Both the position numbers and the translations under genes were made by a program. The notes under the pieces are model-generated. The model did no database searches. It was not told the origin of the DNA and was given only the letters and a program-made list of their open reading frames with translations. Below are positions 2,596 to 54,336 of a stretch of 64,000 nucleotides of DNA, in pieces (position 1 is the first letter of the stretch; each line of letters begins with the position of its first letter). The DNA is taken from sequence record PZ452610.1; one strand, 5' to 3'. This DNA is from a phage.

Positions 2596-2855
2596 ATCTC
2601 AACTTCCGCGAGTTCCATATATCCTTTGTTGATAACCTCTTTAAGGTCTTTAGAAAGGATAACACTAAAATGGTCGTTCATATGTCCATTAACTAAACGA
2701 GTTATTTCGGCTTCAGATGACATATAAGGCACGTCTGAGTCCCAATGAGATAGACCCAAATGGGTATAAATCATCCCTTCGTCATCTGCAGTGTTGTACA
2801 TTGAAACAAATTCGCCTGTTACTTTATGTTTTGCGTAGAAAAATTTAAATTTCAT
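2592..2855 (-). CDS. hypothetical protein (87 aa)
   Basis: ORF track; downstream of early promoter at 2882-2911. Confidence 0.5.
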   Translation of the reverse strand: MKFKFFYAKHKVTGEFVSMYNTADDEGMIYTHLGLSHWDSDVPYMSSEAEITRLVNGHMNDHFSVILSKDLKEVINKGYMELAEVEI

Positions 2856-2881
2856 GATGTTATCCTCTTTTAGATAGGACT

Positions 2882-2911
2882 ACTATATCATAGTCCTACT
2901 TAGTTGTAAAC
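2882..2911 (-). promoter_or_regulatory. early-type promoter with stem-loop
   Basis: Minus strand GTTTAC, 18 bp, TATAGT; -10 flanked by TAGGACTA/TAGTCCTA inverted repeat. Confidence 0.5.
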
Positions 2912-2923
2912 ACTTTTATGAAA

Positions 2924-3400
2924 TTAAAGATGAAGATACCACCCGTTGTAGTTGCTCTTGCGGACGATTTTCTTTAGGTCTTCATGGTCTCCCACGAACT
3001 TTATAGAATAAGAGAAGACGTCAGGTGAGGTTTCTTTGACATCTAATATAATAATGCAATCTGCGACTCGATGGTTCAAGAAGGGCCCTATGTTGATTCC
3101 GTTGCCACCTGGATAATCACCACCGTATCCTGTGGTAACCGAAATCCATTTCGAATCCATCTGATGGGTCTTTACTTCTACGCGTAGACCACAGTACTTA
3201 GGATGAGCTAAAACGTCCCATGCATACGTGTACGGGTCTTCTACGTCTTCATTACCTTTATTAACATATCCGTCTAGCCAATTTGCTACTACATACTCTG
3301 CAAAGACTGCAACCTTACAACGTCGAACAACGTCTTCTTTTATTTGACCTGGATCTTGTTTCAACGAGTACCGAGCAGTATCAGCGATCTTAACCTTCAT
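2924..3400 (-). CDS. hypothetical protein (158 aa); positional candidate for denB but no motif support
   Basis: ORF track 2924..3544 trimmed to in-frame ATG at 3398-3400 to avoid 128-nt overlap with upstream ORF. Confidence 0.45.
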   Translation of the reverse strand: MKVKIADTARYSLKQDPGQIKEDVVRRCKVAVFAEYVVANWLDGYVNKGNEDVEDPYTYAWDVLAHPKYCGLRVEVKTHQMDSKWISVTTGYGGDYPGGNGINIGPFLNHRVADCIIILDVKETSPDVFSYSIKFVGDHEDLKKIVRKSNYNGWYLHL

Positions 3401-48514: not shown

Positions 48515-48543
48515 TTTATTTTCCTCTGTGGTAGATGGTGTTA

Positions 48544-49617: not shown

Positions 49618-50088
49618 TTAATCATGTTTCCACACCCCATTGGTATTCGACCAAAGTCGCTGATTATCTGATCCTCGCCACAGTTTTTTGGTCGGAAGAT
49701 TTTTCTCATACTTCCCATCAATAATAACATCAACATATTTAAGCATTTCTAGTTGTTTAATATCTTCAAACTTATATCCTGTCCACAACCAAATGCTTTT
49801 ATTGGGATAAATATTTTTTACTGTTTGAACAATGCAATGAACAACATCTCTATTATCAGGATAGAGAGGGTCGCCTCCGGTTATAGTCAATCCTTCTATA
49901 TAATCATTATTCAAACATTCAATTAATTGTTCTAGTGTCTCTCCAGTGAATGGAGCACCATTTCTAGCGTTCCATGTTGATTTATTATAACACCCTTCAC
50001 ATTTATGCAAACAACCTGTAACGAAAAGAACGACCCTGCAACCAGGGCCATTCACAAAATCGCAAGGATAAAATCTATCATAATTCAT
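49618..50088 (-). CDS. nrdG: anaerobic ribonucleotide reductase activating protein (radical SAM)
   Basis: 156 aa; CLHKCEGC radical-SAM cysteine motif; downstream of nrdD. Confidence 0.9.
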   Translation of the reverse strand: MNYDRFYPCDFVNGPGCRVVLFVTGCLHKCEGCYNKSTWNARNGAPFTGETLEQLIECLNNDYIEGLTITGGDPLYPDNRDVVHCIVQTVKNIYPNKSIWLWTGYKFEDIKQLEMLKYVDVIIDGKYEKNLPTKKLWRGSDNQRLWSNTNGVWKHD

Positions 50089-51902
50089 TGGTGTTTAACC
50101 CTATGCATGATTTCTTTATTTTTACCGAGATTAAATCCGCGTTCGTTCGGATTTCCCAAATAACCGCATGTTCTTCTTATGGTGTTCATCTTTTTAGGAT
50201 CAGTTTCTCCGCAAACTGAACAAACAAATCCGTTTTCAGTAGGAGTCATTTCATGGGTACTTCCACATGTAAAACATTTATCTACTGGCATATTAACACC
50301 AAAATAATCTAAATGTTGTGCAGCATAATCCCAGACAGCCTCAAGTCCCTTTAAATTGTTTTTCATATCTGGAAGTTCAACATAAGAAATGTGACCACCT
50401 GTCGCAATGAAATGATATGGCGCTTCACGAGAAATCTTTTCAAACGGAGTAATATTTTCTTCTACTGAAACATGGAAACTATTAGTGTACCAGCCTTTAT
50501 CTGTAACATCTTTTACACTTCCATATTTTTCTGTGTCTAGTTTACAGAAACGATAACAAAGGTTTTCAGCAGGTGTAGAATACAAGCTAAAAGCAAACCC
50601 AGTTCTTTCAGTCCATTGTTTAAGAAGAGCATTCATTTTAGTTAAAATTTCTTGTCCAATATCACGTCCGACAAGAATATTCAATTCGTGGATACCAATG
50701 TATCCTAAAGACACTGAACTTCTACCGTTTTTAAATAACTCAATTATGTCGTCATCAGGTTTAAGACGAACCCCGAATGCACCTTCTTGGTAAAGAATAG
50801 GAGCAACAGTCGCTTTAACTCCTTTTAAGGAACTAATTCTACACATCAAGGCTTCAAAACACAGATCCATACGTTCATTGAATAATTCAACAAATTTCTG
50901 TTCATTGAACTGTGTTCCAATATAAGAATCTAATGCGATACGAGGAAGATTCAGTGTTACAACACCGAGATTATTACGTCCATCAAGAATTTCATTACCA
51001 GTCGAATCTTTCCATACGCTCAAGAAACTACGGCAACCCATTGGAGAAACTGGAACTGAAGAACCAGTAATAGCTTTATTATTCTTAGCTGAAATAATAT
51101 CAGGATACATTCTTTTGCTTGCGCACTCTAGAGCAAGCTGCTTAATATCATAGTTCGGATCGTCTTTATAAAGATTAACACCTTCTTCAACGAACATAAC
51201 AAGCTTAGGGAAAATAGGAGTTATTCCATCACGACCAAGACCTTTAATGCGGTTTTTAAGAATTGCCTTCTGAATCATTCGTTCAGTCCAATCGGCCCCC
51301 GTACCAAATGTAATTGTTACAAAAGGTGTTTGTCCGTTTGAACTAAAGAGAGTATTTACTTCATATTCATAAGCTTGGAACGCGTCATAGACATCTTTTT
51401 CTGTTTTGGATTGAGCATAATTCAACGCATCAGCGATTTGCCATTTTTCCGCATCTTCAACATGTTTAGCGTATGTGCGTTTAACATAAGGAGAAAGAAC
51501 TTTATCGACATTTGCAAATGTAGTTCCGCCATACTGATGTGAAGCAACTTGTGCAGTAATTTGTGCCATAATTGCAGTAGCAACACCAATCGATTTAGGC
51601 GTTTCAATTTGAGCATTGCCTAATTTAAATCCGTTCTCAAGCATCCCCTTTAAATCGACTAAACAACAATTAGTAAACGGAAGAGCAGGAGAATAATCAA
51701 TATCATGCATGTGGATAATTCCACTTTCATGCGCATTCATAATAAAAGACGGGACCATATTTTTGGCAATGTGCTTAGACACAATACCAGCCATAAGGTC
51801 CCGTTGAGTTGGAAAAACACGAGAATCTTTATTAGCATTCTCGTTTAAAAGGTCTTTATTAGTTTTATGAATTAATCCTTCAATTTCTTTTTCAATTTTC
51901 AT
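50085..51902 (-). CDS. nrdD: anaerobic ribonucleoside-triphosphate reductase (glycyl radical enzyme)
   Basis: 605 aa; C-terminal RRTCGYLG glycyl-radical motif and CxxC zinc site; T4 NrdD length. Confidence 0.95.
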   Translation of the reverse strand: MKIEKEIEGLIHKTNKDLLNENANKDSRVFPTQRDLMAGIVSKHIAKNMVPSFIMNAHESGIIHMHDIDYSPALPFTNCCLVDLKGMLENGFKLGNAQIETPKSIGVATAIMAQITAQVASHQYGGTTFANVDKVLSPYVKRTYAKHVEDAEKWQIADALNYAQSKTEKDVYDAFQAYEYEVNTLFSSNGQTPFVTITFGTGADWTERMIQKAILKNRIKGLGRDGITPIFPKLVMFVEEGVNLYKDDPNYDIKQLALECASKRMYPDIISAKNNKAITGSSVPVSPMGCRSFLSVWKDSTGNEILDGRNNLGVVTLNLPRIALDSYIGTQFNEQKFVELFNERMDLCFEALMCRISSLKGVKATVAPILYQEGAFGVRLKPDDDIIELFKNGRSSVSLGYIGIHELNILVGRDIGQEILTKMNALLKQWTERTGFAFSLYSTPAENLCYRFCKLDTEKYGSVKDVTDKGWYTNSFHVSVEENITPFEKISREAPYHFIATGGHISYVELPDMKNNLKGLEAVWDYAAQHLDYFGVNMPVDKCFTCGSTHEMTPTENGFVCSVCGETDPKKMNTIRRTCGYLGNPNERGFNLGKNKEIMHRVKHQ

Positions 51903-52372: not shown

Positions 52373-52399
52373 GATAAACCCTTACCTTAAATAGATAAG

Positions 52400-52570
52400 G
52401 GTATTTATAATTTAGTAAACGTTATAAAAGTCTCGATGGAAACGCTTATACTGACGAATCATTCTTTTAGTAGGACGAGTTTCTGAAATAATTGAAGTCC
52501 TCATATTTGGATTGTTTGGGGCCCAATCATAATAAATTTCCAGGATTTTTGCCCATTTTTTCTTTCGCCA
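52400..52570 (-). pseudogene. frameshifted copy of the small basic gene at 53015..53185
   Basis: Nucleotide similarity to 53015-53200 (shared ataaaagt..cgatg..tttagtaggacga..ttgcc(c)atttttt); reading frame broken into 14-30-aa fragments. Confidence 0.3.
52402..52409 (-). promoter_or_regulatory. late promoter (TATAAATA) for gene 49
   Basis: Minus strand TATAAATA about 30 nt upstream of endo VII ATG; T4 gene 49 is known to have a late promoter. Confidence 0.5.
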
Positions 52571-52599
52571 TAAAATAGTTCAGTTTTCATAATAAGCCC

Positions 52600-53013
52600 T
52601 TAACTTAAACGTCTTTCTAAATATTCAATGTATTCCGCGGCGGCTTGCATCAGATTACCTTCATAACCGTCATTATTTTCTTGACCGGCTAATTTAGCTA
52701 AAGCATAAGAAATACGTTCACCTTCGAATTCGCCAAGACCACCATCACAAACTACTTGGTCAATTTCTTCGAGTTCATCTATTGAATGGGATTCCCAGAA
52801 GCACCAAAGAGAAGTATCACGGTCATAGATGCAAAGTTTCTCACCTGTGTTCAACATCACTTCGATAATGCCATGGTCGCCATAACCATCTTCGGTAGTA
52901 GTACCAATTACCTTGATGATTGTTCCTTTCTTTAATTCAGGAAACTTGACTTGTAGTTCTTCATCTTCTTTAACAATCTTGAACCATTTACCGCGAGTTT
53001 CAGAAATATTCAT
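52600..53013 (-). CDS. hypothetical protein (137 aa)
   Basis: ORF track trimmed to MNISETRGKW start; the track N-terminus overlaps the upstream small gene. Confidence 0.45.
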   Translation of the reverse strand: MNISETRGKWFKIVKEDEELQVKFPELKKGTIIKVIGTTTEDGYGDHGIIEVMLNTGEKLCIYDRDTSLWCFWESHSIDELEEIDQVVCDGGLGEFEGERISYALAKLAGQENNDGYEGNLMQAAAEYIEYLERRLS

Positions 53014-53014
53014 A

Positions 53015-53185
53015 TCAATATTCTCTATAAAAGTTACGATGAGAACGTTTAGCTTTGCGAAGCTGACGTTTAGTAGGACGAACTGTAAATGGTTGTCCAG
53101 AGAAAAAATTCGGATCGGTTTTAATAAGCAAATACCAATCATGTTTGCCATTTTTTAATAAACGGTACAATAATTTAACTTGCAT
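53015..53185 (-). CDS. small basic protein (56 aa)
   Basis: ORF track trimmed to MQVKLLYRLLKNGKHDWYLL start; C-terminal RPTKRQLRKAKRSHRNFYREY; early promoter at 53225-53254. Confidence 0.4.
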   Translation of the reverse strand: MQVKLLYRLLKNGKHDWYLLIKTDPNFFSGQPFTVRPTKRQLRKAKRSHRNFYREY

Positions 53186-53200
53186 AATAATCTCTTCCCA
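53015..53200. repeat. duplicated small-gene segment (copy A; copy B at 52400-52570)
   Basis: Shared nucleotide blocks between the two regions; copy A has an intact 56-aa ORF. Confidence 0.4.
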
Positions 53201-53224
53201 TTTCCATATCAATTAATTCATTTA

Positions 53225-53254
53225 TTGAAGGTTCATCATAACACGTTTCTTCGT
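53225..53254 (-). promoter_or_regulatory. early-type promoter
   Basis: Minus strand GTTTAC, 18 bp, TATGAT upstream of small basic gene. Confidence 0.45.
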
Positions 53255-53313
53255 CGTTGTAAACTGTTTCGACGTCTGGCTCGACCGTCTCCCATCGAGC
53301 CGAATACCACGGT

Positions 53314-53670
53314 TTAACCGCGGAGTTTATTGATCTCTTCATAATCAACCCAGGATTCTAGCCCAGATGGCAAATCAGATTCAATTTCCCAAAGAAGCTC
53401 TTCAATGGCTTGCAGGCGATTATATTCTTCAACGGTAATGGTAACCATTGGTGCAACCGGTTCTGCCTTTTTAACAATCATATCGTTCATCAGGATGTAA
53501 AGGTCATCACGAACGACAGTGTCGTTCCAACCCCATGATTTGGCTTCATAAGCTAATGATGAAGGGAGCACATTTAAAACTTCAATAATAGTTGGAGCAT
53601 CAGGACCAAGTTCATTGGCACAAACTTCGTATACATCTTGGAAATCTTTAAGATTTAATGAATATGTCAT
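53314..53670 (-). CDS. hypothetical acidic protein (118 aa)
   Basis: ORF track. Confidence 0.5.
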   Translation of the reverse strand: MTYSLNLKDFQDVYEVCANELGPDAPTIIEVLNVLPSSLAYEAKSWGWNDTVVRDDLYILMNDMIVKKAEPVAPMVTITVEEYNRLQAIEELLWEIESDLPSGLESWVDYEEINKLRG

Positions 53671-53930
53671 TTAAAATATTCTCGTAGTTGGTCAAAGCCA
53701 CCGATCGAAGTTCCATCAGGAGCAAACACTTGAGGCATAGTCAATCCAACTTGTGATTCACGTCCAAGCTTAACCAGAAGCTCAGCAATTTTCTCATCAT
53801 CAAAAACACCTTTTTCTGGCATAACGTTAATGAATTCGAATGGTTGTTTCTTAACAGTCAGCAATCGTTTCGCATTATCACAATAAATGCATTTATGAAT
53901 AGTAGAGTCATACCCGTACACTTTAAACAT
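53667..53930 (-). CDS. nrdC: thioredoxin/glutaredoxin NrdC
   Basis: 87 aa from MFKVYG start; near-identical to T4 NrdC (MFKVYGYDS.IHKC.YCDNAKRLLTVKKQPFEFIN). Confidence 0.9.
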   Translation of the reverse strand: MFKVYGYDSTIHKCIYCDNAKRLLTVKKQPFEFINVMPEKGVFDDEKIAELLVKLGRESQVGLTMPQVFAPDGTSIGGFDQLREYFK

Positions 53931-54336
53931 TATTTTTCCTTTCATCGATTAAATATGCAACGCCAAATACAATACATGTAATAAAACCTGTGATACAGAT
54001 AGAAACCAACAACACTGTACCAAAGAACCAAATCAGGTTATCTTTAGTAGTTTGTTTTATATCCATCTCACGAATTTCTATAGCTATAGTATCACCTTTA
54101 TTCAGAAGCGTATAAAACGACGGTGATACATGCCTGTCAAAAACTCGTCCTTGCTCATCTTTATAGACTGCAATAAATTCTAATTTAGAATATTTTCCTG
54201 TAGATTGACCTGAGATTAATTCCACTACCTCCACAGGAATTACTTTAGTTTCCATGTAAGTATTCTGACTGTTCCAAATGAATGGAATAATAGCAAAAAC
54301 TAAAGCTGCGATAAAACAACGAAGGCTATATCTCAT
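53923..54336 (-). CDS. membrane protein (137 aa)
   Basis: ORF track; N- and C-terminal TM segments. Confidence 0.5.
   Translation of the reverse strand: MRYSLRCFIAALVFAIIPFIWNSQNTYMETKVIPVEVVELISGQSTGKYSKLEFIAVYKDEQGRVFDRHVSPSFYTLLNKGDTIAIEIREMDIKQTTKDNLIWFFGTVLLVSICITGFITCIVFGVAYLIDERKNNV

Follow-up and report, generated by a model that had tools for sequence, protein, structure and literature searches.

In phage T4, late genes of one class are controlled through RNA structure: early read-through transcripts hide the ribosome-binding site (RBS), and late transcripts start within the 5' arm of the hairpin, which frees the RBS (PMC2988022). The locus described here lies just upstream of the gene 49 counterpart in the window, a term used for the whole 64,000-nt stretch of phage DNA that was analysed (sequence record PZ452610.1). 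The T4 gene 49 case reportedly goes back to Barth, Powell, Trupin and Mosig in 1988, cited as reference 60 of the summarising review. A second described point of comparison is T4 Pin (PinA, 161 aa, NP_049694), which corresponds to the gene located between two copies of a small gene in the window.

Both copies are DUF7279 (phrog_3272) paralogues, located on either side of pin on the minus strand, which carries every gene of this stretch. The one with gene 49 directly downstream is called copy A, and the other copy B (Table 1). The stretch of about 1 kb around them shows 100% identity with E. coli O157 typing phages 3, 6 and 13, which are RB69-like members of Mosigvirus, and 97-98.5% identity with ATK47, LH01, RB69 and other Mosigvirus genomes. 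We consider it likely that copy A is a young G-loss frameshift allele of a dispensable gene, anciently diverged from copy B.

Table 1. Features of the locus, with coordinates in the window
Feature	Positions	Strand	Basis
nrdD	50085-51902	-	
Gene 49, endonuclease VII, 157 aa	51899-52372	-	ORF list and annotation of identical records
RNA hairpin ACCCUUAUCU-AUUUA-AGGUAAGGGU	52378-52402	-	predicted fold -13.7 kcal/mol, z = -2.9
Late promoter motif TATAAATA (T4-type) of gene 49	52402-52409	-	exact motif match
Copy A, frameshifted DUF7279 gene, RB69ORF087c orthologue	52412-52590	-	ORF list, alignments, tblastn
Copy A C-terminal fragment ORF, 30 aa, MRTSIISETRPTKRMIRQYKRFHRDFYNVY and stop	52412-52504	-	
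Copy A N-terminal fragment ORF, 29 aa, MKTELFYGERKNGQKSWKFIMIGPQTIQI and stop	52501-52590	-	
Frameshift site, one G missing	52518-52524	-	alignments with ATK47 and RB69
pin, Lon protease inhibitor PinA, 137 aa	52600-53013	-	Pfam Inhibitor_I24 E 8e-49; phrog_2167
Copy B, DUF7279 gene with unbroken frame, 56 aa and stop	53015-53185	-	ORF list, Pfam, PHROG
49.1-like gene	53175-53348	-	
118-aa gene	53314-53670	-	
nrdC	53667-53945	-	

The leader of gene 49 closely resembles that of T4. The window reads TAAATACCCTTATCTATTTAAGGTAAGGGTTTAT-ATG, which matches T4 almost exactly, and late transcription from about 6 nt past TATAAATA would give an RNA without most of the 5' arm of the hairpin, as in T4. 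The two differ in that the window has the canonical TATAAATA and T4 has AATAAATA, and in that function has been shown experimentally in T4 only. The hairpin comprises 10 bp and its 3' arm holds the gene 49 Shine-Dalgarno sequence (AAGGG, 6-10 nt before the AUG at 52372-52370), a layout that would fit RBS sequestration of the T4 type known for gene 49, soc, e and I-TevI. Its sequence is near-identical in T4 and PP01, and annotators of ATK47 and PhAPEC2 labelled it 'terminator'. The promoter motif is one of four exact matches in the window, and the hairpin starts at its final A. Its position is conserved in RB69, ATK47, ST0 and phiE142, with AATAAATA in its place in T4, PP01 and PhAPEC2. The first-pass annotation of this DNA had the late promoter carried within a decayed gene copy; the motif in fact begins 2 nt past the copy A stop codon (52412-52414), outside copy A. 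Promoter and hairpin are also kept in genomes without copy A (PhAPEC2) or without an intact copy (T4). These results demonstrated that the gene 49 promoter and hairpin are intact, and that they are neighbours of copy A and not part of the duplicated gene. A sigma-70 promoter scan returned hits no more frequently than in shuffled sequence.

We then consider the relationship between the two copies. The proposal made on first reading, of two small basic genes related by homology and a broken frame in the copy upstream of gene 49, was confirmed, the homology by BLASTP, Pfam and PHROG. The intact 56-aa ORF reported at 53015-53185 is present in the ORF list, and the homologous second copy placed at about 52400-52570 exists, with a true span of 52412-52590. 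Copy B and copy A with the missing base restored share 39% amino-acid identity over their full length (BLASTP, E = 4e-12), and this, together with the shared Pfam and PHROG matches, takes the similarity beyond A/T-rich runs. In the nucleotide alignment of A and B, the conserved blocks include TCGTCCTACTAAA and ACTTTTATA. Against a PF23945 (DUF7279) gathering threshold of 24.5 bits, copy B scored 54.5 bits and RB69ORF087c, the intact copy A orthologue, 58.1 bits; with phrog_3272 E values of 6e-27 and 2e-30, respectively, both are members of PF23945 and phrog_3272. The 30-aa C-terminal fragment of the window (P0017) likewise has a precomputed PF23945 match. An alignment of six sequences revealed invariant columns at L5, Y7, G13, W17 and R-P-T-K-x3-R-x2-K-R-x-H-R-x-F-Y, and all conserved DUF7279 motif residues are encoded in copy A, spread over two frames. 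With paralogues that are only 39% identical, the duplication is old.

Single DUF7279 genes between pin and 49 were found in PP01 (Tequatrovirus) and JS10 (Dhakavirus); these match copy A at 51-62% identity and copy B at about 43%. Copy A is the positional orthologue of the PP01/JS10 gene and the widespread member, and copy B is a divergent paralogue. A search of 5.8 billion proteins with the single copy B sequence returned 2 proteins, and a profile search returned 19. An exhaustive HMM search of 1.8 billion representatives gave 8 matches, of which 3 were spurious repeats, and no annotated distant DUF7279 relative was found among those representatives. As judged from these searches, the family appears narrow and confined to T-even-type phages. 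No mention of DUF7279, RB69ORF087c or RB69ORF089c was found in the literature searched. Salmonella phage S16 (L056, 1362-1665) has a distant 54-aa DUF7279 homologue after a 49.1-like gene; it shows the same 11-nt start/stop overlap as copy B, yet its sequence is closer to the A type, and neither pin nor gene 49 is adjacent.

The break in copy A was traced to one base. On the coding strand, the lesion site reads GGGCCCC in the window, GGGGCCCC in ATK47 and GGCGCTCC in RB69; one G is absent from a G4C4 palindrome, leaving G3C4 in the window (in wider context, ATTGGGGCCCCAAAC in ATK47 and ATTGGGCCCCAAAC in the window). ATK47 is the closest relative outside the typing phages, and between about 48.6 kb and 53.6 kb no indel other than the missing G separates it from the window. 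Restoring the G gives a copy A protein 100% identical to that of ATK47, with 0 non-synonymous differences and 1 synonymous difference. RB69 has an intact 59-aa RB69ORF087c between pin and gene 49 (AAP75989.1), which shares 90% amino-acid identity with repaired copy A. Among the intact Mosigvirus copies A (RB69, moha and ATK47), dN/dS was 0.03-0.13 at a dS of about 0.4. These ratios indicate that intact copy A is a genuine coding gene under strong purifying selection, and they suggest that it is functional when intact. A tblastn search with the RB69 protein yielded about 56 records with copy A at at least 80% identity, among which two-piece matches occurred only in typing phages 3, 6 and 13. 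The intact second copy sought in related genomes was thus found as RB69ORF087c and in about 50 other GenBank records, in which copy A is unbroken.

Copy A combines a frame-disrupting lesion with constrained intact orthologues, the pattern of a unitary pseudogene. It had been described as a decayed copy whose frame is broken into fragments, and both points need correction: the frame is shifted once, through the lack of one G and no other lesion, and repair yields exactly the protein of ATK47. KNPGNLL, which had been listed as a similar peptide, comes from a third reading frame and is without homology in copy B. Copy A therefore reads as an ordinary, very recent single-base frameshift pseudogene allele, not a decayed duplicate. 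If copy A had instead broken up gradually into several pieces, with its present role mainly that of the gene 49 promoter region, the broken frame and the adjoining late promoter would be expected. However, such a history does not agree with a single lesion whose repair gives the protein of an intact orthologue, nor with a promoter and hairpin that lie outside the ORF and are equally conserved in PhAPEC2 and T4. Moreover, the high dS (about 0.4) and low dN among orthologues point to constraint on the protein and not to a regulatory DNA role, and we regard long-term degeneration as very improbable. GenBank annotates the copy A fragments as two separate hypothetical proteins; that FDG79_gp209 and gp210 (29 and 30 aa) belong together as the two parts of a single DUF7279 gene with a frameshift is a matter of routine annotation. 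Frameshifts were also observed in other DUF7279 alleles, namely in L008, where a T run is affected, and in P0018 and P0019, both derived from Logan.

The typing phages were sequenced by Illumina MiSeq (150 PE) and assembled with Velvet (PMC4429339); the reads of TP3, TP6 and TP13 belong to PRJNA252693. A sequencing or assembly artefact, in which the true phage sequence is GGGGCCCC, the 59-aa gene is whole and the base was dropped in the Velvet assemblies, was weighed. The lesion alters the length of a homopolymer run within a G4C4 palindrome, all three records come from one study and pipeline and are not fully independent, and in ECCR664, clearly a poor assembly, runs are shortened at three places in copies A and B. 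However, a 4-base run is rarely miscalled by high-coverage Illumina MiSeq, very few single-base indels separate the window from ATK47 over 31 kb, and the three separately assembled phages are concordant. In addition, the Logan assembly P0024 has the ...IMIGPQTIQI-stop product on a different allele background (MKTALFFGERTNGQ...). An artefact is unlikely on this evidence.

The split gene might still be expressed, either as two peptides through termination-reinitiation at ATGA or as a full-length protein restored by slippage. At 52501-52504, the stop codon of the N-terminal fragment overlaps the in-frame ATG of the C-terminal fragment within ATGA, this ATG being the conserved internal Met30 codon, and the C-terminal fragment keeps the whole conserved basic motif RPTKRMIRQYKRFHRDFY. 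On the other hand, no Shine-Dalgarno sequence precedes the internal ATG, and inspection from the G run to the stop revealed no zero-frame X XXY YYZ slippery heptamer. The predicted fold packs three N-terminal strands on the C-terminal helix, so lone halves are unlikely to fold, and the arrangement is too short-lived for selection. Expression of the split gene is thus quite improbable. Programmed -1 frameshifting was considered separately and rejected: the zero frame (GGG CCC CAA ACA ATC CAA ATA TGA) is without a slippery heptamer, C CCA AAC being found only in the target frame, and in relatives one frame encodes the whole protein.

The arrangement of these genes varies among relatives. The order B-pin-A-49 was found in the window, RB69, ATK47, moha and GADS24. 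PhAPEC2 has B-pin-49, with copy A deleted and the pin stop abutting the promoter, ESCO47 has pin-A-49 without copy B, and ST0 and phiE142 have a single B/A chimera directly before 49, without pin. Since an IMG/VR scan with gp49 gave Mosigvirus loci in only 2 of 44 cases, frequencies were taken from tblastn identity bands and are approximate: about 123 records with a Mosigvirus-type pin, about 146 with copy B, about 56 with copy A and an estimated 23 or so without pin. The chimera (ST0 L055 and phiE142 L006; 1501-1671 in both) follows copy B to ...RSHRNFY and then copy A as NVY-stop, late promoter and hairpin. Its crossover falls in the 9-nt A/B identity ACTTTTATA, which argues that recombination between the direct-repeat paralogues deleted pin and offers an explanation for pin loss in ST0/phiE142-type Mosigviruses. 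A more speculative and improbable reading is that the paralogues act as a recombination cassette for the loss and regain of pin, a Lon inhibitor. Genes are gained and lost at a small hot spot, the pin-49 interval, and the wider comparison is of modest use for work on T4-like phages.

Comparison with T4 Pin revealed a further rearrangement. In PP01, pin ends ...ISFSDRAF-stop and is followed by a separate DUF7279 gene ending ...MIRQYKRLHRMFYNT-stop. In T4, a 137-nt deletion removed the pin stop and DUF7279 codons 1-43, producing an in-frame fusion of pin codon 146 to DUF7279 codon 44 (L007, NC_000866, 2898-3383, compared with PP01 L004, 1055-1677). T4 Pin ends ...ISFSDR-MIQQYKRLHQMFYNT-stop, and these last 15 residues, MIQQYKRLHQMFYNT, are the C-terminus of a copy A-type gene, whereas in the window the 137-aa pin and both DUF7279 genes are separate. 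Fusions of the T4 type were also present in IMG/VR loci L010-L012 and L014. Because T4 is without an intact DUF7279 gene, this shows that DUF7279 is dispensable in laboratory phage T4. The neighbour-gene origin of the 15-residue tail bears on PinA structure-function work and on which residues are the true Lon-inhibitor residues. DUF7279 itself is a known domain-of-unknown-function family, and the by-products of the analysis (the PinA tail and pin loss) are neat and of specialist interest. One locus, L013 (IMGVR_UViG_2974787500, 2640-3010), has a T4-type pin::tail fusion, a pin 3' remnant (...TQNSFSDRTF-stop) and a complete DUF7279 gene, and looks like the product of unequal recombination between T4-type and PP01-type arrangements. 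In Dhakavirus (JS10, L005, 1029-1504; also L015, L018 and L019), pin appears split and permuted, with a 57-aa ORF for the C-terminal third of Pin (profile 102-152) upstream of a 100-aa ORF for the N-terminal part (profile 1-80).

Copy B is the counterpart of RB69ORF089c and was identical or near-identical in 146 phage records (at least 80% identity). At its start it shares 11 nt with the 49.1-like gene, and its stop codon (TGA) lies 1 nt from the ATG of pin. Two 1-nt insertions in this region are private to the RB69 reference (L001, AY303349; 2217-2333 and 2517-2874). The first, A6 to A7, splits copy B; the second, about 400 nt away (GGAACGAC to GGAACGGAC), divides the 118-aa gene between ORF091c and ORF092c. 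Both insertions may be sequencing errors of the Sanger-era 2003 record or laboratory-strain mutations. GADS24 has a copy A protein as in RB69 together with an intact copy B. Reciprocal silencing of the paralogues, with RB69 breaking B and the window breaking A, was downgraded in view of the second private insertion in RB69 and the intact copy B of GADS24. A MotA-box-like ATTTGCTTA noticed by eye within copy B was also rejected, as no suitably spaced -10 element follows it.

Together, these observations suggest a short sequence of events for copy A. The O157 typing phage lineage (phages 3, 6 and 13) would have lost one G from the GGGGCCCC run, most likely by replication slippage and too recently for additional changes to accumulate; the frame shifts after codon 23 and reaches a stop 6 codons further. 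The loss was presumably tolerated because the gene is dispensable, given that T4 is without an intact copy and many Mosigviruses are without copy A. Copy B may cover for the lost copy A, uncertain as this is at 39% identity. A selective explanation was weighed as well, in which loss of DUF7279 is advantageous on some hosts, for example if the protein triggers an O157 defence or abortive infection and the frameshift is a selected escape allele. Independent run-length frameshifts occur in the window, L008 and the Logan-derived P0018, P0019 and P0024, deletions occur in T4, PhAPEC2 and ESCO47, and the GPQTIQI-stop allele is present on a second haplotype. We rate this explanation as improbable and favour simple tolerated loss of copy A.

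The proteins of both copies are very basic, with a pI of 10.5-10.8 and 13-14 K+R in 56-59 residues (copy B: pI 10.8, 14 K+R). An AlphaFold model built from 17 sequences reached a pLDDT of 81 and showed a beta-beta-beta-alpha arrangement, in which an antiparallel sheet of three strands leads into a C-terminal helix that bears the RPTKRxxRxxKRxHRxFY motif. The AP2 / integrase arm-type DNA-binding fold, a three-stranded sheet plus a C-terminal helix, was considered as a candidate match. A structure search of BFVD returned only uncharacterised T4-like phage proteins, and no solved structure was found among the sequence relatives of DUF7279. From the charge and the modelled topology, one might guess, weakly, that the DUF7279 protein binds nucleic acid. 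As a working guess, charge, fold topology and location point to an accessory protein that is small and non-essential. Since its gene lies in the T4 prereplicative transcription unit, it is probably expressed early.

Several further observations concern the neighbouring genes. The C-terminal 55 residues of the 118-aa protein match phrog_3402, 'antitoxin from a toxin-antitoxin system' (E 1e-30), and the protein also shows a weak, sub-threshold likeness to the T7 gp5.9 RecBCD inhibitor (Pfam E 0.037). In ATK47, an additional ORF of about 300 nt is inserted upstream of the 118-aa gene. The window holds two 1-nt insertions relative to ATK47 at 48540 and 48574, 34 nt apart, which could be a local frame change in either phage. 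Upstream of pin, its frame stays open across copy B, which is read in a different frame, to give a 183-aa ORF (52600-53151, minus strand), and the GADS24 annotation names such a long form 'protease inhibitor' (552 nt). This form is almost certainly an over-extension, since the pin ATG at 53013 aligns with the start of the Pfam model.
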